Source: Shigella phage vB_SsoM_113. From it: a DNA stretch of 64,000 nucleotides. The position numbers were made by a program, and so were the translations under genes. The stretch lies in the sequence record LR746311. The stretch is one strand, 5' to 3'. This document shows, one piece after another, positions 15,554 to 27,557 of the stretch. How positions within the stretch are numbered: the first letter of the stretch is position 1; every line of letters begins with the position of its first letter. The notes under the pieces are model-generated. The model was given only the letters and a program-made list of their open reading frames with translations, was not told where the DNA came from and searched no databases.

Positions 15554-16392
15554 TTCAATTCGTAATTCCAAGCTATCAACGCGTAGGGGCAGTTTCTGCC
15601 CTTGATATGTTTCCATCTGATTATGAACCACATATTGTAGTACGTAAACATGAAGAAAAAGCTTATTATGATGCTTACGGGTCTAGAGCCAAAATTATAA
15701 CTATTCCTGATGATGTCAATGGAATTGCTGGTACTCGTAAAGCAATTACTGATATGTATGCAGGTCAACGAATTTGGATGATTGATGATGATACTACTAT
15801 TCGTATGAGTTCAATGCGAAAAAGAGATGATCGTCGCTGCGTAGATAAAATTAATCAGTTAACTCGTGAACAGTTCTATGAATTGATTCAATACGTCGAA
15901 GATGCCATGGATTGTGGGTATTATCACGGTCATGCTCGTCTACCTATTTTTAAAATTACTTCATCTTGGGGTAATTATCGTGAAAATTCATATGGATTCA
16001 CGAATACTTGGTATGACCTCGGGAAACTTACAACAGAACAAATTGGATATGGAAAAATTGATTTATGCGAAGATATGTATGCATTTCTCAATTTAATTAA
16101 TCAAGGTTATCCGCATTTGGCCTTGTTCAAATATCTGGTTGTATCTGGAAAAGCGCAAGCTCCAGGCGGATGTAGTTCAATTCGTAGTAATTCAAAACAT
16201 AATAGAGCTCTTGAGCAAATCAATAGAGAGTTTCCAGAGCAAGCTCGTTGGAAAACATCGAATATTGAAAAGAGAAAATCGTTGGGTGAAGAAGACGAGC
16301 CATTAAAGGTTCTTCGCATGTGTGTTTCGCGCAAAGAAAAATCAGAAGCGTTTCATAAGTTTAATGCTATTCATCCAATAGCAGTTGATTAA
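15550..16392 (+). CDS. GT-A fold glycosyltransferase (probable DNA glucosyl-HMC modifying enzyme)
   Basis: N-terminal FVIPSYQR and DDD (DxD) motifs typical of GT-A; sits where T4 has beta-gt. Confidence 0.7.
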   Translation: MIQFVIPSYQRVGAVSALDMFPSDYEPHIVVRKHEEKAYYDAYGSRAKIITIPDDVNGIAGTRKAITDMYAGQRIWMIDDDTTIRMSSMRKRDDRRCVDKINQLTREQFYELIQYVEDAMDCGYYHGHARLPIFKITSSWGNYRENSYGFTNTWYDLGKLTTEQIGYGKIDLCEDMYAFLNLINQGYPHLALFKYLVVSGKAQAPGGCSSIRSNSKHNRALEQINREFPEQARWKTSNIEKRKSLGEEDEPLKVLRMCVSRKEKSEAFHKFNAIHPIAVD

Positions 16393-21845: not shown

Positions 21846-22042
21846 ATTAACCCAACTAAAGCAAATGCTAAATCTACGAATGTATCAAGAGTAATTACTG
21901 GAATATTAACGCCATGAGCAATAGCAATTGGCGATAAAACAAAATTCCAGAGTAAAATTCCTACCATAGCAGAAATAGTAAAAGCTATACGTTTTTTATT
22001 ACCTTTTATGGCATTAACAAGTGCCATTAATTTTTGTACCAT
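21842..22042 (-). CDS. small membrane protein (66 aa), antisense to the early operon
   Basis: AAGGAGG RBS 5 nt before ATG; two hydrophobic segments; late-promoter-like AATAAATA upstream; stop overlaps gene 61 stop. Confidence 0.5.
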   Translation of the reverse strand: MVQKLMALVNAIKGNKKRIAFTISAMVGILLWNFVLSPIAIAHGVNIPVITLDTFVDLAFALVGLI

Positions 22043-22055
22043 ATGTCCTCCTTAT

Positions 22056-22079
22056 TGCTTTATATATTTATTGTATAAT
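22056..22079 (+). promoter_or_regulatory. MotA-dependent middle promoter of gene 56
   Basis: TGCTTTA 22056-22062, 11-nt spacer, TATAAT 22074-22079. Confidence 0.55.
22065..22072 (-). promoter_or_regulatory. late-promoter-like element AATAAATA (one mismatch to TATAAATA)
   Basis: about 22 nt before the ATG of the minus-strand ORF. Confidence 0.35.
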
Positions 22080-22113
22080 TAATCTACTAACCCATGAATT
22101 GAAAGGAAAAATA

Positions 22114-22632
22114 ATGGCTTACTTTAATGAATGTAGTCAACTGATTGAAGGCGCTGATAAAGCTCAAAATGAATACTGGGATATTCTCGGCGATGAAAAA
22201 GACCCGCTGCAGGTTATGCTTGATATGCAGAAATCTCTGCAGGTTCGTTTAGCTAAAGATAAACCTGAATATAACCGTCATCCTGATGATTTGGCTACTG
22301 CAGGTGAAGTTGTTGATTGGCTGCGTAATCAGAAAGATTATATTGATGATGAATTCCGCGAACTTCTGACTTCTCTTGGTGGTATGAGCAATGGCGAAAA
22401 AGATGCATCTGCTGTATGGAAGCCTTGGAAGTCGCAACACGGTGAACGTCGTGAAACTCTGATTACTGATTTGTCTCCACAAGACCAGTTGGAAATTAAA
22501 TTCGAAATGATTGATATTCTTCATTTCGTTCTGAACATGTTCCAAGGCCTCGGTCTTACGGCTGAAGAAATCTTTAAACTTTATTATCTGAAAAATGCTG
22601 AAAACTTCGCTCGTCAAGACCGAGGTTATTAA
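22114..22632 (+). CDS. 56: dCTPase/dUTPase gp56
   Basis: 172 aa from ATG 22114 (MAYFNECSQLIEGADKAQNEYWDILGDEKDPLQVM), recognised as T4 gp56. Confidence 0.93.
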   Translation: MAYFNECSQLIEGADKAQNEYWDILGDEKDPLQVMLDMQKSLQVRLAKDKPEYNRHPDDLATAGEVVDWLRNQKDYIDDEFRELLTSLGGMSNGEKDASAVWKPWKSQHGERRETLITDLSPQDQLEIKFEMIDILHFVLNMFQGLGLTAEEIFKLYYLKNAENFARQDRGY

Positions 22633-22856
22633 TGGCTCGTTTAAATAAACGCCAGCTTAAGAAAGCCCACAAGAAACGTATTGACCAGCTATTTAAAAAT
22701 TATGACAAGGAGCTCACATACGAGCTCTTATCTAATCAGCTTCGTGCAGTTGATTGGGGTGTAGAAGAAGGTCTTGATGAAATTTTTGTCAGTAAAGAAG
22801 CCTTAAAATTAATTATAGAGCATTCAAATGAAAATATCCAAAGAAGAATTTATTAG
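22632..22856 (+). CDS. hypothetical protein (74 aa)
   Basis: TAATG coupling to gene 56. Confidence 0.5.
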   Translation: MARLNKRQLKKAHKKRIDQLFKNYDKELTYELLSNQLRAVDWGVEEGLDEIFVSKEALKLIIEHSNENIQRRIY

Positions 22857-23001
22857 ACGACAAAAAGCTTTAATTAATTTATACGAGTGGTATGCCTATC
22901 AACTTAAAGTAGATAGCTCTAATATAAATGCTGTAATGGCTTTATATAAACAAATTCAAGATGAACACGAATTCCTGGCACAAGTTTTCATTGAAGACTG
23001 A
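22828..23001 (+). CDS. possible small ORF (57 aa)
   Basis: ATG ORF overlapping previous gene; weak RBS. Confidence 0.25.
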   Translation: MKISKEEFIRRQKALINLYEWYAYQLKVDSSNINAVMALYKQIQDEHEFLAQVFIED

Positions 23002-23002
23002 T

Positions 23003-23010
23003 ATAAATAC
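23003..23010 (+). promoter_or_regulatory. late promoter TATAAATA (soc)
   Basis: exact TATAAATA 31 nt before soc ATG, followed by AAAGGAG RBS. Confidence 0.7.
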
Positions 23011-23040
23011 ACCTGTAATTAAACAATAAAGGAGTTTATT

Positions 23041-23277
23041 ATGGGTGGTTTCGTTAACATCAAGACCTTTACTCATCCAGCGGGTGAAGGCAAAGAAGTT
23101 AAAGGTATGGAAGTTTCTGTTCCGTTTGAAATTTATTCTAACGAGCATCGTATCGCAGATTCTCATTATCAAATCTTTCCGTCAGAAAAAGCAGCTTATT
23201 CTGATGTAGTTTCCGATGCAGCAACTTGGAAAACTAAGAATACTGCAATGTTTACGCCTACAGAAATAGGTGGTTAA
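23041..23277 (+). CDS. soc: small outer capsid protein Soc
   Basis: 78 aa with VNIKTF ... HYQ.FPSEKAAYS resembling T4 Soc; late promoter and strong terminator. Confidence 0.8.
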   Translation: MGGFVNIKTFTHPAGEGKEVKGMEVSVPFEIYSNEHRIADSHYQIFPSEKAAYSDVVSDAATWKTKNTAMFTPTEIGG

Positions 23278-23282
23278 AATTC

Positions 23283-23308
23283 AAGGACTCCTTCGGGAGT
23301 CCTTTTTT
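23283..23308 (+). terminator. rho-independent terminator after soc
   Basis: 9-bp stem aaggactcc/ggagtcctt, TTCG loop, T6 tract. Confidence 0.75.
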
Positions 23309-23318
23309 CATTTTACCT

Positions 23319-23348
23319 GTTTACTTTCCAAAATGAGTATGGTATAAT
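23319..23348 (+). promoter_or_regulatory. T4-type early promoter
   Basis: GTTTAC 23319-23324, 18-nt spacer, TATAAT 23343-23348. Confidence 0.55.
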
Positions 23349-23374
23349 AGAATTATCTTACAGAGGAGAGCACT

Positions 23375-23581
23375 ATGTTAAATCGCTGGATTAAACCAAA
23401 TGAAGATTTAGATATTATCATTTCACGGCATGTAATGAAGAAATATGAACTACAGCCATGGTCTACAGAAGTTGTTGTGCATTCATTTATGATGTACGCA
23501 GATGGTTCTGTCGAATTTAATGCAGAGATTCGATATGATTATGGCGAGAAGCAAGTTGAATTCAAAAGAGGCTTTTTGTAA
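23375..23581 (+). CDS. hypothetical protein (68 aa)
   Basis: GAGGAGAG RBS, ATG 23375. Confidence 0.5.
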   Translation: MLNRWIKPNEDLDIIISRHVMKKYELQPWSTEVVVHSFMMYADGSVEFNAEIRYDYGEKQVEFKRGFL

Positions 23582-23919
23582 TGTTTATCTTTAATTGGTT
23601 TAAAAGTTTCTTTACGGATTTTTTCTCTACGACTCCCGGAGAAGGTGTAGTTCCTATTTCAAATGACTACCTTCCTTTAACTGTAGTTGAATATGTTTAT
23701 ATGGGAGATGGAACAGTAGAAGCAGTTACTATGACTTATGAAGAAGCCCAGGAATATTATAAAAATCCTTGGCGTTGGTCAACACCTACATCATCTAATA
23801 CGCAGAATACACAGTCTAGTTCTGATTCATATGATACTAATGTTCCTGTTCATGTGTGGACGGGCGATTCATGTGGAAGTTCTTGTGATTCTAGTTGTTC
23901 ATCTACATCTTGTGATTGA
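23581..23919 (+). CDS. hypothetical protein (112 aa) with Cys/Ser-rich C-terminal tail
   Basis: TAATG-coupled; C-terminus [18 protein letters not shown]. Confidence 0.5.
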
Positions 23920-23927
23920 GGAAAATT

Positions 23928-24413
23928 ATGGAAGCAATTTTGTTTGAAATGTATATTAGCAGTGATAGCATGGCGTTTGCTAAAGATATTCCAATTACAG
24001 TAGCAGTAATAATTGATAAAAGATATGATAATAACATGTATCTAGTAGAAGATTTTATTTCAATGCCAGTTCCAGAAGATGTTGAAATAAAACTTAAAAA
24101 GATCGGAATTATTGAAACTGTACGAAATTCTCCATTTATGTCAATTCAAGCATTTACTAAATCTAACTATATTGATGTTGCTGAATCATATTATAACAAT
24201 AAACCATTGCCATTATATTCATATGATTCAGTATATGACTGGAAAATAGATAAAGGAAATAAATTTATAATTACGGAAGAAAATGCGCTGTCATATTTTA
24301 TTACCTCTTTATGGAATAGTTTAAATCCAAATTTGCTAAAAATTCATAAATTTGACGATGCTCCTACTATTGTTTTAGGTAAAACAAATGAAAGTTCTGA
24401 AGAAGATGCTTGA
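23928..24413 (+). CDS. hypothetical protein (161 aa)
   Basis: GAGGAAA RBS, ATG 23928. Confidence 0.55.
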
Positions 24414-24591
24414 ATGGTTCAATAGACCAAACTCAATGTATATTGATGATGGTTGGGTTGAACAAGCAAATAAAGAAATGCAGAACGAATCGGAAGAATG
24501 GATGAAATCAATGATTAGTGCTGAGAAAGAAAAGAAATTAGAACGCTCAGCGCTTAAATTGATGAGAGACATCTATGGGGATAAATCATGA
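24406..24591 (+). CDS. hypothetical protein (about 61 aa), start uncertain (alternative 24388)
   Basis: ORF overlapping previous stop. Confidence 0.4.
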
Positions 24592-24752
24592 ACAGAGATA
24601 TGACATTAGAAGAGGCTAAAGCTAAAGCAAATGAAGCAATGGATTTGCTTCTTAAAATTGGCAGTAAAATGATGGAAGAAAATGAGAAATATATCCAGGA
24701 AAACAAAATTCCTGACGGTCCATTAGTAGGCAAAAGGAAATCACATGATTGA
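24588..24752 (+). CDS. hypothetical protein (54 aa)
   Basis: ATGA-coupled at both ends; not in track. Confidence 0.35.
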
Positions 24753-25215
24753 AGTAGCAAAACATTATTCAATAGAATTTATGTCTAAAGAAGGTAAATC
24801 AGTAAATGCACTTGATAAAAAATGCTCATTAATTATTCCTTTAGTAGAAAATCCGGATCTTTTAATTAAAGATATAAAAGAAAGAAAATATCCAGAAAAT
24901 GTTATTCTAATTATAAAGCATACTGAAGATATTTTACAGAATACTGATTCACCGTTTTCTTCTTCTGAAGCTTTAACTATTAAAGGCTATAAAAGAGCCC
25001 ATGAATATGGTCTTTTTGACCTGTTTGAAGACGATAAAGTTAAATTAGCGAGTCAACCTTCTAAAAGTAAAACATTCATTATTGAAGATATTAAAGATAT
25101 AAATGCATTTGTTAAGATGGTCTGGGCTCATTTTGACGTTGGACTACGCTGGAGAATATCCGAAGAAGAAAGAAAGATTATTGAAGCTAATCGTTATTTT
25201 GGTTTTTATCGCTAG
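24745..25215 (+). CDS. hypothetical protein (156 aa)
   Basis: ATG ORF coupled to upstream ORF. Confidence 0.55.
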
Positions 25216-25223
25216 GAATTAGT

Positions 25224-25406
25224 ATGGATTTATTTGAGATGTTAGAAGATAATCATTCTACGAATATCCAGAATGATTCTAGTGATTATAAGAAAGAGTA
25301 CCGTATAGTATTACAGAATTATGGAATTGAAGCCCCAGATGCTCTTCTAGAAGAACTAGCTTCATACCATCTTGACCCTCCGCCTTGGGCTCCCTGGGCA
25401 AAATAA
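25224..25406 (+). CDS. hypothetical protein (60 aa)
   Basis: AGGA RBS, ATG 25224. Confidence 0.45.
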   Translation: MDLFEMLEDNHSTNIQNDSSDYKKEYRIVLQNYGIEAPDALLEELASYHLDPPPWAPWAK

Positions 25407-25417
25407 TTCAAAAAGTT

Positions 25418-25447
25418 GTTTACTTTCCTTCCTAACAATGATATGAT
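25418..25447 (+). promoter_or_regulatory. T4-type early promoter (modB)
   Basis: GTTTAC 25418-25423, 18-nt spacer, TATGAT 25442-25447. Confidence 0.5.
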
Positions 25448-25473
25448 AGCTTCTGAAGTATATGGAGGCTATC

Positions 25474-26097
25474 ATGATTATTAATCTCGCAGATGTTGAA
25501 CAGTTATCTATAAAAGCTGAAAGTGTTGATTTTCAATATGATATGTACAAAATGGTCTGTGAAAAATTTACTGACTTTGAACAGTCAGTTCTTTGGCAGT
25601 GTATGGAAGCCAAAAAGAATGAAGCTCTTCATCGGCAGTTGAATAAAATCGTTAAAAAGCATTTAACTAAATCGCCTTATCAGCTATATCGTGGTATATC
25701 AAAATCGACAAAAGAACTCATTAAAGATTTACAAGTTGGAGAAGTGTTTTCAACGAACAGAGTAGATTCATTTACTACTAGTTTGCACACAGCATGTGGT
25801 TTTTCTTATGTTGAATATTCCACTGAAATAATATTTCGCTTAAAAACTGACAAAGCTTTTAATTATTCTGACCATATCAGCGATATTATACTTTCTTCTC
25901 CTAATACTGAGTTTAAGTATACATATGAAGATACTGATGGATTAGATTCAGAACGTACTGATAACTTAATGATGATTGTACGTGAACAAGAATGGATGAT
26001 TCCAATTGGAAAGTATAAAATAACTTCTATTTCAAAAGAAAAATTACACGATTCATTTGGAACATTTAAAGTGTATGATATTGAGGTAGTTGAATGA
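25474..26097 (+). CDS. modB: ADP-ribosyltransferase ModB
   Basis: 207 aa from ATG 25474; ART R-S-E signature (YRG, STS-like, EQEWM). Confidence 0.85.
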   Translation: MIINLADVEQLSIKAESVDFQYDMYKMVCEKFTDFEQSVLWQCMEAKKNEALHRQLNKIVKKHLTKSPYQLYRGISKSTKELIKDLQVGEVFSTNRVDSFTTSLHTACGFSYVEYSTEIIFRLKTDKAFNYSDHISDIILSSPNTEFKYTYEDTDGLDSERTDNLMMIVREQEWMIPIGKYKITSISKEKLHDSFGTFKVYDIEVVE

Positions 26098-26696
26098 AAT
26101 ATTCAGCAATGCAATTAAAAGATTTTAAAATAAAATCAATGGATGCATCGGTGCGTGCTTCTATTCGTGAAGAATTACTTTCTGAAGGATTTAATTTATC
26201 CGAAATTGAACTTTTAATTCATTGTATTACTAATAAGCCAGACGATCATTCTTGGTTAAATGAAATAATCAAATCTCGTTTGGTTCCAAACGATAAACCT
26301 CTTTGGAGAGGTGTTCCAGTTGAGACTAAGAAGGTGTTAAATCAAGGAATTGATATTATTACATTTGATAAAGTAGTATCAGCTTCATATGATAAAAATA
26401 TAGCTCTACATTTTGCTTCTGGATTAGAATACAACACACAAGTTATTTTTGAATTCAAAGCTCCTATGGTGTTTAATTTCCAGGAGTATGCTATAAAAGC
26501 TTTACGTTGTAAAGAATATAGCCCGAGTTTTAAATTTCCGGATAGCCATCGTTATCGTAATATGGAATTAGTTTCAGATGAACAAGAAGTAATGATACCA
26601 GCTGGAAGTGTATTTAGAATTGCGGATAGATACGAGTATAAAAAGTATTCAACATACACTATCTATACTCTTGATTTTGAAGGATTTAATCTATAA
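26094..26696 (+). CDS. modA: ADP-ribosyltransferase ModA
   Basis: 200-aa paralogue of ModB (WRG ... EQEVMIP), ATGA-coupled. Confidence 0.85.
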   Translation: MKYSAMQLKDFKIKSMDASVRASIREELLSEGFNLSEIELLIHCITNKPDDHSWLNEIIKSRLVPNDKPLWRGVPVETKKVLNQGIDIITFDKVVSASYDKNIALHFASGLEYNTQVIFEFKAPMVFNFQEYAIKALRCKEYSPSFKFPDSHRYRNMELVSDEQEVMIPAGSVFRIADRYEYKKYSTYTIYTLDFEGFNL

Positions 26697-26751
26697 TGGA
26701 AGGACTTAGATTCATTATACCATGAAAGTTTTAAAGCATTTTCATAAAGTT

Positions 26752-26781
26752 GTTTACAAGTTGAAGTAAAAATGTTATAGT
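26752..26781 (+). promoter_or_regulatory. T4-type early promoter (srd)
   Basis: GTTTAC 26752-26757, 18-nt spacer, TATAGT 26776-26781. Confidence 0.5.
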
Positions 26782-26810
26782 ATAAGTAGTTAACCGTCCG
26801 TGAGAAAAAT

Positions 26811-27557
26811 ATGAAACTGTCTAAAAATCAAATTCGTAAAATTACACGTCGTCTAGAGCATACCCAGGCATCTGCTAAAAGACGTTCTAAAGATTTTAAC
26901 TTAGACTTCAATTACATTAAGAACATTTTAGATCAGAAAGTTTGCGCTTACTCGGGAGAACCTTTTGATAATCGTATTGAAGGAGAGAAATTATCATTAG
27001 AACGTTTTGATAATAACGTTGGATACATTAAAGGGAATGTTATTGCAGTAAAGAAAAAGTACAATACATTTCGTTCTGATTATACTTTAGAAGAGTTGAT
27101 TGAAAAGCGTGATTTATTTGCTTTGCGAATTGGTCGTTCATCTGCGAAAAAAGTTCATAAACTAAATTTAGATGAAAAGAAATGGGCTAAAATCAAAAAG
27201 ACTTATAATCAAATTAAAGCTATACAGAAAAAACGTGAAAACCGAATTGAGCACATTTCTCAGCTTTCTAAATCAAAACAGACCTCTGACGTTAAGCTAA
27301 CGATTGTAGCACTCAAAGCTCGTATTGATGGTTCTCGTATAGCAGAAGGTGCTGAAGTTGTTAAATTGAACGTTCTTCTTAAAGGCTCTGATTGGAAAAC
27401 TGTGAAAAAGTTGTCAGAAGCAGAAATGCAATATGATATGTGTGATAAAATTATTCAAGGTGTAGAGCGGTATCAAAACTTGTCTTTTATTGATAAACTT
27501 AAACTAAAAAGAGGATATCCGCTAAATTGTTCAATTTTTAAACTTATCCGAGGATAA
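26811..27557 (+). CDS. srd: Srd (sigma-factor-like early protein)
   Basis: 248-aa basic protein at T4 srd position between modA and dda.1. Confidence 0.75.
   Translation: MKLSKNQIRKITRRLEHTQASAKRRSKDFNLDFNYIKNILDQKVCAYSGEPFDNRIEGEKLSLERFDNNVGYIKGNVIAVKKKYNTFRSDYTLEELIEKRDLFALRIGRSSAKKVHKLNLDEKKWAKIKKTYNQIKAIQKKRENRIEHISQLSKSKQTSDVKLTIVALKARIDGSRIAEGAEVVKLNVLLKGSDWKTVKKLSEAEMQYDMCDKIIQGVERYQNLSFIDKLKLKRGYPLNCSIFKLIRG

Follow-up and report, generated by a model that had tools for sequence, protein, structure and literature searches.

Mrh.1, encoded in a T4-like dispensable early cassette, ends in a family-wide Ser-Cys-Asp signature

The small phage protein Mrh.1 ends in a conserved element of two Ser-Cys-Asp units, the second of which is the very C-terminus, and the four-cysteine, serine-rich tail found in the 64,000-nucleotide stretch of DNA analysed here (the window) is a local, T4-clade variant of this family-wide motif. 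As judged from its sequence, the interval that encodes it (23375–25406) is the known, dispensable T4-like early cassette mrh.2-mrh.1-mrh-srh-modA.4-modA.3-modA.2. Cassette and tail are already catalogued and annotated in T4, whose Mrh.1 has an identical tail, and neither is therefore a new feature. As a genome feature the cassette carries little weight, being a textbook dispensable T4 region whose genes any annotation pipeline would name; the new part of this analysis is the family-wide tail signature, that is, the anatomy of Mrh.1.

By nucleotide similarity the window comes from a Tequatrovirus (96.9% identity to Tequatrovirus HY01; 711 phage records match). Seven plus-strand ORFs fill the interval and correspond one for one, by position and length, to T4 mrh.2 to modA.2 (NC_000866 13198–15232; NP_049637 to NP_049643), with the same order, orientation, lengths and overlaps, and Pfam and PHROG matches agree on the identities of the genes. 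The flanks are also those of T4, with soc (23041–23277; Pfam Soc) upstream, modB and modA downstream, and the promoter and hairpin ahead of modB in place; segF, which lies upstream of soc in T4, is absent there in the window. Coordinates and family matches thus confirm the tight packing between soc and modB/modA described in the initial annotation, which did not recognise the ORFs as named T4 genes. Its size range of 68 to 161 aa needs correcting to 54–161 aa, while the coupling it proposed stands as probable, since the ORFs overlap or abut (in order, they overlap by 1 nt at TAATG, lie 8 nt apart, overlap by 26 nt, by 4 nt at ATGA and by 8 nt, and again lie 8 nt apart). The order soc-mrh.2-mrh.1-srh-modA.4-T4_MRH-modA.2-Mod ADP-ribosyltransferase is retained in distant Tevenvirinae. 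In the window, in T4 and in distant relatives (loci L003, L005 and L012–L019) alike, mrh.1 immediately follows and overlaps mrh.2 within the stretch that runs from soc to the Mod ADP-ribosyltransferases. Searches of NCBIfam and PADLOC gave no meaningful matches, an Rfam scan of 22000–27500 returned no RNA family, and full-text literature searches on mrh.1, modA.x and mrh.2 produced no relevant main-text match.

Signals for transcription, all on the plus strand, bracket the cassette. Beyond soc lies an intrinsic terminator (23283–23304; 9-bp GC-rich stem, UUCG loop, T run), followed by an early-type sigma-70 promoter (23320–23348; TTTACT-17-TATAAT with a TG extension) that scores 10/12 and is the top promoter match in the region. 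This promoter has a 33-nt direct repeat (73%; family D1) in common with a second, promoter-like site close to modB (25419–25476; TTTACT-17-TATGAT), where a hairpin includes the promoter-like -10 in its 5' arm and the modB Shine-Dalgarno sequence GGAGG and start codon in its 3' arm; the promoter/hairpin site is 96% conserved in T4, HY01 and locus L010. The two plus-strand genes that follow, modB (25474–26097; 207 aa from the T4-equivalent start) and modA (26094–26696; 200 aa), belong to the ModA/ModB ADP-ribosyltransferases by their matches to PHROG 832 (E values of 8e-42 and 4e-33) and by their T4 positions. In the window an additional in-frame ATG, which T4 lacks, precedes the modB start by 12 nt, at 25462; because T4 has ACG there, we take 25474 as the conserved start.

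Published T4 data bear on whether the cassette is needed and when it is expressed. Transposon insertions were tolerated at all TA sites of all seven genes, with 31 of 31 in mrh.1 (HIDEN-SEQ, bioRxiv 10.1101/2025.11.20.689424, supplementary file 7), and the cassette lies within the dispensable Delta12 region (PMC6070864); the initial view of the cluster as accessory is upheld by both. The prospect that the ORFs might not be expressed is answered in part, for T4, by a supplementary table (PMC9697503, supplementary file 4) in which the mRNAs of all listed cassette genes are classed as early and the proteins of mrh.2, mrh, srh, modA.4 and modA.3 were detected, Mrh.1 protein itself being left unclassified there. 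The tryptic peptides of Mrh.1 are 8, 53, 4 and 47 residues long, and the two long ones would probably render it invisible to trypsin-based proteomics. The main text of a toxicity screen of Mosigvirus AV110 genes makes no statement on the Mrh.1 homolog among toxic genes.

The neighbours of mrh.1, all on the plus strand, are assigned as follows. The 68-aa product of mrh.2 (23375–23581; T4 position and length; PHROG 1873, E 1e-36) is always encoded immediately upstream of mrh.1, and its homologs at L003 and L005 match PF26878 (Phage_T4_Y01J). We considered whether Mrh.2 and Mrh.1 are paralogs with a common DG(S/T)VE hairpin and rejected this, as BLASTP found nothing and hhalign gave a probability of 0.3%. 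Downstream lies mrh (23928–24413; 161 aa from the ATG, or 165 aa from an upstream TTG; PHROG 1234; T4 mrh position), which matches Pfam T4_MRH (PF24070) with 140.7 bits; modA.3 (24745–25215; 156 aa) encodes a second member of that family at 127.7 bits, both well above the gathering threshold of 24.4 bits. ModA.3 is a paralog of Mrh (25% identical, E 4e-4) and is the copy of the pair retained by other Tevenvirinae; a homolog search with ModA.3 alone found relatives that were all at least 72% and nearly all more than 88% identical, and a profile search gave mostly the same proteins. The T4_MRH profile had no match in the PDB, and an AlphaFold2 (AF2) model of Mrh from 28 sequences (mean pLDDT 50.9) was unusable for establishing the fold. 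According to its annotation in an RB14 record, Mrh affects the phosphorylation of sigma32. Srh (24388–24591; 67 aa; PHROG 2441, E 6e-41, full length; T4 srh position) is annotated as a decoy of host sigma32 and has a weak local BLASTP match to residues 244–279 of E. coli MG1655 RpoH (12/38 identical, E 7e-4 for one pairwise comparison). The two remaining genes are modA.4 (24588–24752; 54 aa; PHROG 2681; T4 position) and modA.2 (25224–25406; 60 aa; PHROG 1647), whose product has a conserved C-terminal DPPPWAPW and whose homologs match PF26838 (Phage_T4_Y01E).

Mrh.1 itself (23581–23919, plus strand; 112 aa; PHROG 2031), whose start overlaps the mrh.2 stop at TAATG, matches DUF7206 (PF23836) with 98.9 bits against a gathering cut-off of 25.6, its residues 3–112 aligning to positions 1–107 of the 107-position profile. 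The protein consists of an amphipathic N-terminal helix, a conserved hairpin-plus-helix core with PGEGxVPI, a linker of variable, low-complexity sequence and an acidic tail of Ser, Gly and Asp that is predicted to be disordered. Residues 1–15 (23581–23625), rich in aromatics and modelled by AF2 as a helix at residues 3–15, have a family mean hydrophobic moment of 0.67 against a background of 0.44, and the helix motif is common to Mrh.1 and Srh (hhalign E 1.8e-4 over 12 columns). The most conserved core, residues 37–49 (23689–23727), is a predicted beta-hairpin (AF2 strands 34–40 and 46–52, pLDDT about 70) in which Y40, G42, G44 and E47 are invariant among 29 sequences. Across the whole AF2 model (8 sequences; mean pLDDT 52.9) residues 34–61 alone, the core hairpin and helix, come near 70 and the tail falls below 50, so that the model is too poor for fold comparison. 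A PDB sequence search with Mrh.1 alone returned no match; the sole PDB match of the family profile, to an iridovirus major capsid protein (6ojn_A residues 220–281), was marginal (E 0.0026) and is probably due to chance.

Relatives in DUF7206/PHROG 2031, found in phages of many host genera (T4-like, Enterobacterales), share with the window protein the N-terminal helix, PGEGxVPI, the EYVYMGDG core and the terminal -S-C-D. What varies is the linker, which is swapped as a module (P0003) while both protein ends are retained: many relatives carry a module of the form AGNVG...KKLKEHL...DTTPIVVAAAVSS, which the T4 clade lacks. The T4 protein (NP_049642; 113 aa) differs from that of the window, in an alignment by eye, at two residues and by a one-residue indel, the window protein having one linker Thr fewer and Thr94 in place of Ala.

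The tail, exactly the 18 residues given in the initial annotation, occupies residues 95–112 (23863–23916, plus strand), with cysteines at residues 98, 102, 106 and 111. Its composition is not a matter of chance: given the residue frequencies of the window (C 1.2%, S 6.5%), a segment of 18 residues would hold at least four Cys with a probability of 6e-5 and at least eight Ser with one of 8e-6, and no similar tail was found in any other ORF of the 64 kb. DNA slippage was rejected as its origin, since the DNA beneath it is free of tandem repeats and encodes Ser by a mix of AGT, TCT and TCA. Kept in kind in all 36 full-length relatives, the tail has a penultimate Cys in every one of them and a C-terminal -Cys-Asp end in 35; 32 of the 36 have exactly two tail Cys, 5–10 residues apart in a Ser/Gly/Asp-rich tail, and 32 have no Cys outside it. 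Family-wide, a tail Cys is followed by Asp in 66 of 80 cases and preceded by Ser in 70 of 80. Four tail Cys are confined to the T4 clade, the window included, whose tail has no Tyr and where the spacing is C-x3-C-x3-C-x4-C in T4 as opposed to C-x5-10-C elsewhere in the family. The conserved feature is therefore the terminal S-C-D...S-C-D-COOH arm and not a four-Cys metal site. Among 12 Tequatrovirus mrh.1 genes, three of the four Cys codons switch between TGT and TGC and no Cys is replaced, in a protein whose linker has indels, which shows purifying selection on the tail Cys.

On the explanation that we favour, if only by a little over even chances, the cassette is an early, non-essential host-takeover module in which the tail of Mrh.1 acts as a flexible thiol/carboxylate arm. 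The cassette would be transcribed from its own early promoter just past the soc terminator; the N-terminal part of Mrh.1 may, from its composition, dock to a host partner or a membrane surface, and the ligand captured by the tail would be thiophilic: most likely a metal ion, which two chains might share, and failing that the cysteine or metal centre of a partner. As a whole the cassette would most likely tune the transcription and stress physiology of the host in early infection, and the genetics of mrh and srh (PMC6070864) count in favour of this. The initial suggestion that the tail could bind metal accordingly keeps its plausibility in general form and loses its canonical four-Cys form, since the family conserves just two of these four Cys. 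Zinc ribbons and fingers have four conserved Cys, usually in two CxxC knuckles, within a folded domain; here 32 of 36 relatives have two Cys, the T4-clade spacing forms no such knuckles and the tail is predicted to be disordered. In its alternating thiols and carboxylates, its predicted disorder and, in the T4-clade form, its four Cys, the tail resembles metallothionein, the SlyD C-terminus and phytochelatin-like repeats, but this is a resemblance only: the family keeps two Cys, lacks CxC or CxxC knuckles and has no His. Several points weigh against the favoured explanation. No homology ties Mrh.1 to metal or thiol chemistry, two conserved Cys are too few for a canonical monomer site, and an increase in thiol pKa is to be expected from the adjacent Asp. 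Mrh.1 has no relative in PDB, NCBIfam or PADLOC, and its protein goes unclassified in the T4 proteome, although its tryptic peptides are unfavourable. The HIDEN-SEQ main text discusses no condition under which mrh.1 matters, and one conditional table of that study gives it a log2FC of -0.16 with q = 1 (bioRxiv 10.1101/2025.11.20.689424).

The same anatomy could be read in other ways. Flexible C-terminal Cys pairs work as redox or sulfur arms in DsrC/TusE, the C-terminus of ribonucleotide reductase NrdA and MerA, and DsrC has a penultimate Cys and a second one about 10 residues upstream. The Mrh.1 tail, with an invariant penultimate Cys, a second Cys 5–10 residues upstream on a predicted-disordered arm and hardly any other Cys in the protein, recalls this geometry by analogy, and might thus be a swinging arm or decoy whose two Cys cycle between dithiol and disulfide or hold a persulfide, with Mrh.1 feeding or jamming a host thiol pathway. 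We consider this unlikely. The likeness to these arms is one of mechanism only and lies in a mobile tail with a penultimate or near-terminal Cys and another Cys shortly before it; in Mrh.1 this tail is far richer in Ser and Asp, and the Asp beside each Cys disfavours a reactive thiolate. Pfam and PDB sequence searches relate Mrh.1 neither to DsrC/TusE nor to any redox protein, a two-electron shuttle has no need of the two additional T4-clade Cys, and the cassette holds no thiol-pathway gene. Equally, the Cys might have no chemical role and the tail be a mere acidic, Ser-rich disordered region that mimics nucleic acid or a phospho-protein, acts as pseudo-substrate of a kinase or keeps the protein soluble. 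Its predicted disorder would fit, as would the pI of 4.05 and net charge of about -11 of Mrh.1, the 47% Ser plus Thr of residues 66–112, the Tyr-rich SSYSSYDSGS at the same place in relatives and the RB14 annotation of Mrh. Such a region leaves unexplained the universal penultimate Cys, the near-invariant terminal Asp, the Cys-free remainder of the protein and the purely synonymous change at Cys codons, and we hold it to be improbable.

A conserved N-terminal part followed by a Cys/Ser/Thr-rich C-terminus also resembles a leader and core peptide, and Mrh.1 would then be a precursor modified at Cys or Ser by RiPP-like heterocycles, thioethers, S- or O-glycosylation, or lipidation. This is very unlikely indeed: Pfam and PHROG scans of the cassette, its conserved neighbours and the syntenic loci revealed no YcaO, radical-SAM, LanM-type or glycosyltransferase domain, and a host-encoded modifying enzyme would need to be universal, given the many host genera of phages that carry the family. 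Lipidation, which the initial annotation had also raised, finds no support in the protein itself, which has no signal peptide or lipobox Cys: K8 and D13 interrupt the amphipathic helix at its N-terminus, no Cys precedes residue 98 and all lie within the last 15 residues. We know of no pathway for lipidation of a C-terminal Cys in E. coli.

Extending the explanation that we favour, the Mrh.1 family could be an unrecognised class of host-takeover effectors in which the Srh-like helix leads to the inner membrane or a common host partner and the S-C-D...S-C-D 'hook' sequesters metal, or catches a thiol or persulfide enzyme of the host, at an early stage of infection. In the T4 clade the hook would have become stronger through additional Cys at or close to the positions of its relatives' Tyr; this is a speculative and decidedly unlikely proposal. 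Mrh.1 is one of many T4 early proteins left without a function after sixty years, and the family-wide tail signature provides a sharp and cheap experimental handle on it.

The interval between soc and modB (23375-25406) holds seven + strand ORFs of 68, 112, 161, 67, 54, 156 and 60 aa, joined in order by TAATG, an 8-nt gap, a 26-nt overlap, ATGA, an 8-nt overlap and an 8-nt gap, such that no spacing exceeds 8 nt and the remaining junctions overlap. The cluster and the Cys/Ser C-terminus of the 112-aa protein are present as the initial annotation claimed, although its size range of 68-161 aa leaves out the 54-, 60- and 67-aa ORFs. On the 5' side lie soc (23041-23277; Pfam Soc), a strong intrinsic terminator 3' of it (23283-23304) and, at 23320-23348, the region's best-scoring match to a sigma-70 promoter (TTTACT-17-TATAAT with a TG extension); modB and modA (PHROG 832) follow on the 3' side. 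Between gene 56 (dCTPase) and soc (22632-23001) are two small ORFs of 74 and 57 aa, at the site where T4 instead carries the homing endonuclease gene segF (T4 15606-16280).

A DNA search with this 2.5-kb interval matched 711 phage records, the closest being the Escherichia phages HY01 and PEC04 (genus Tequatrovirus; 96.9% identical). Comparative alignment across T-even phages, which had been proposed as a check, matches the cassette to T4 gene for gene: the equivalent interval of T4 (NC_000866) carries mrh.2, mrh.1, mrh, srh, modA.4, modA.3 and modA.2 with equal order, lengths and overlaps, every ORF falls in its T4 family (PHROGs), the 112-aa protein (Mrh.1; 23581-23919) matches Pfam DUF7206 with 98.9 bits, the 161- and 156-aa proteins both match Pfam T4_MRH, and the 18-residue tail of T4 Mrh.1 is identical to that in the window. 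The seven ORFs thus correspond to genes already annotated in T4, the mrh.2-modA.2 cassette, and are not new as a genome feature; functional labels exist for mrh and srh only. In GenBank, many homologs of ModA.3 and ModA.2 (24745-25215 and 25224-25406) are named [quoted passage not shown], apparently a misannotation propagated from the names of the genes modA.2 and modA.3.

Since T4_MRH matches both proteins, ModA.3 is a paralog of Mrh (25% identity). The mrh gene itself (23928-24413) sits between mrh.1 and srh in the T4 clade and is absent from the more distant Tevenvirinae loci compared (L003, L005 and L012-L018), of which L005 has two T4_MRH genes in tandem at the modA.3 position and the others a single one there. 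It looks as though mrh is a clade-specific duplicate and ModA.3 the ancestral copy.

The suggestion that the cluster is accessory is borne out by T4 data: the region is placed inside the dispensable Delta12 deletion (PMC6070864), and transposon sequencing scores 7/7 cassette genes as non-essential, with insertions at 31/31 TA sites of mrh.1 (bioRxiv 10.1101/2025.11.20.689424, suppl. file 7), the main text of the same preprint making no mention of mrh genes among conditionally essential genes. Expression in T4 is documented for most of the cassette in a time-resolved transcriptome/proteome (PMC9697503, suppl. file 4), where mRNAs of mrh.2, mrh.1, mrh, srh, modA.4 and modA.3 are early class and proteins of the same genes are detected except for Mrh.1, whose protein class is “NA”. 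This absent signal is uninformative, because trypsin sites at K8, K61 and R65 only would yield peptides of 8, 53, 4 and 47 residues. A literature search returned nothing on Mrh.1 itself.

Just 5' of modB lies a further promoter-like site (TTTACT-17-TATGAT; 25419-25476). Its -10 hexamer provides the 5' arm of a 12-bp hairpin (AUGAUAGCUUCU / GGAGGCUAUCAU), and the 3' arm of that hairpin holds the modB Shine-Dalgarno sequence and start codon. Across T4, HY01 and the relative's locus L010 the element is 96% conserved, and its fold is only mildly better than that of shuffles (z = -1.75). Given this position of the -10, read-through RNA from the cassette promoter would mask the modB ribosome-binding site, and RNA from the proximal promoter would leave it exposed. 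In the window the modB ORF could also begin at an ATG at 25462, 12 nt 5' of the start annotated in T4; since both T4 and L010 read ACG at this position, 25474 is the conserved start, giving 207 rather than 211 aa.

The Cys/Ser tail of Mrh.1 is under selection. From the window's own amino-acid frequencies, the probability of at least four Cys in 18 residues is 6e-5 and that of at least eight Ser 8e-6; no other ORF of the 64-kb window has a similar C-terminal tail, and no tandem DNA repeat underlies it, the Ser codons being a mix of AGT, TCT and TCA. Comparison of twelve mrh.1 genes from Tequatrovirus shows a nearly invariant tail, with synonymous TGT/TGC variation at 3/4 Cys codons and zero Cys replacements, in contrast to the linker directly 5' of it, which accumulates substitutions and NTQ-type indels.

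In total, 36 full-length relatives emerged from a word-indexed search, a scan of viral contigs and an exhaustive profile search covering 1.84 billion representatives; truncated or frameshifted hits (P0005, P0006, P0009, P0013 and P0019) are fragments. The full-length relatives are encoded by T4-like phages whose hosts include Escherichia, Shigella, Yersinia, Salmonella, Klebsiella, Enterobacter, Citrobacter, Edwardsiella, Serratia and Cronobacter, among others, and wherever context is visible the order is soc, mrh.2, mrh.1, srh, modA.4, T4_MRH, modA.2, Mod ADP-ribosyltransferases. Four of these loci have an extra ORF of 81-84 aa in the modA.2-modB gap (L012 5329-5574, L013 5323-5568, L015 5357-5611, L017 5335-5589), not found in the window, whose N-terminal MNWLTNIP, “SSYSS(C/Y)” stretch and hydrophobic C-terminus loosely echo Mrh.1.

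The family architecture comprises an N-terminal amphipathic helix (M-I-x-W-L-K-x-L-F), PGEGxVPI, an invariant 13-residue core, a linker of low complexity or basic character that varies strongly, and a tail rich in Ser/Gly/Asp(/Tyr). In an alignment-free census of the 36 C-termini, the penultimate residue is always Cys, followed by Asp in 35 and Asn in one; 32 tails have exactly two Cys, spaced 5-10 residues, and four, all of the T4 clade, have four; 32/36 proteins lack Cys outside the tail; and Ser precedes 70, and Asp follows 66, of the 80 tail Cys. What the family conserves is thus S-C-D ... S-C-D-COOH rather than a cluster of four Cys. A smaller alignment places T4-clade C102 on the Tyr of the family's Y-D-S-G motif and matches C106 to the upstream Cys that is conserved, whereas a larger one places C102 on that Cys, and exact correspondence is thus alignment-dependent; under either, the T4 clade has gained two Cys and its tail has no Tyr. 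In P0003 (Mrh.1 of Escherichia phage 235Ecol030PP, 164 aa) the linker holds a module typical of other genera, “EKAGNVGAGALPLNSKKLKEHLDSRR...DTAPIITATAVSS”, between a retained T4-type N-terminus and four-Cys tail, a swap that is evidence of modular recombination within mrh.1.

AlphaFold2 predicts for Mrh.1 a helix (3-15), two strands (34-40 and 46-52) and a second helix (53-61) at pLDDT ~70, and no structure for residues 67-112 (pLDDT < 50); this model and that of Mrh were both below the quality needed for a fold search. The N-terminal helix has a mean hydrophobic moment of 0.67 (0.44 at the N-termini of other ORFs in the window), similar to that of the FtsA membrane-targeting helix computed identically. 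The N-termini of the Mrh.1 and Srh families have in common a motif of about 12 residues, M-x-x-(L/I)-x-W-(L/I)-K-x-(W/F)-(L/F) (23581-23616 and 24388-24423; also L003, L012 and L019), aligned by hhalign over 12 columns (E 1.8e-4, probability 48%), which hints that they may share a docking or membrane-binding peptide. Srh itself has 12/38 identities to residues 244-279 of MG1655 RpoH (E 7e-4 in one single BLASTP comparison), suggestive only as support for its “sigma32 decoy” label. A marginal match of the Mrh.1 family profile to an iridovirus major capsid protein (PDB 6ojn_A residues 220-281, E 0.0026; PGEGxVPI...EYVYMG against VFQNKDTGNVIPIS...EAYVYMTVG) is probably chance.

No match in Pfam, PHROG, PDB, NCBIfam or PADLOC links Mrh.1 to a known activity, and its role has to be read from anatomy. 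Three features favour thiol chemistry over a merely compositional tail: one thiol close to the C-terminus never varies, a second is carried on a flexible acidic arm, and the rest of the protein lacks Cys. The tail is most likely a thiol/carboxylate ligand-binding arm, whose ligand may be a metal ion or else a cysteine or metal centre of a partner. Metal binding, raised in the initial annotation, is possible, although a four-Cys cluster is not what the family conserves; because only two Cys are conserved, the ion would perhaps be shared by two chains. The main rival, a redox or persulfide “swinging arm”, draws on a geometry resembling that of DsrC/TusE, the NrdA C-terminus and MerA, but the two Cys added in the T4 clade fit a ligand-binding arm better than a two-electron redox shuttle. 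The reading of the tail as a purely disordered acidic mimic is weaker, since it would leave the invariant Cys unexplained. Modification or lipidation, the latter also proposed initially, is unlikely for a protein with no lipobox, a conserved neighbourhood without a modifying enzyme and a family spread across many host genera. The remaining interest of the locus lies in Mrh.1/DUF7206, a family without an assigned function that now has a precise, testable signature.
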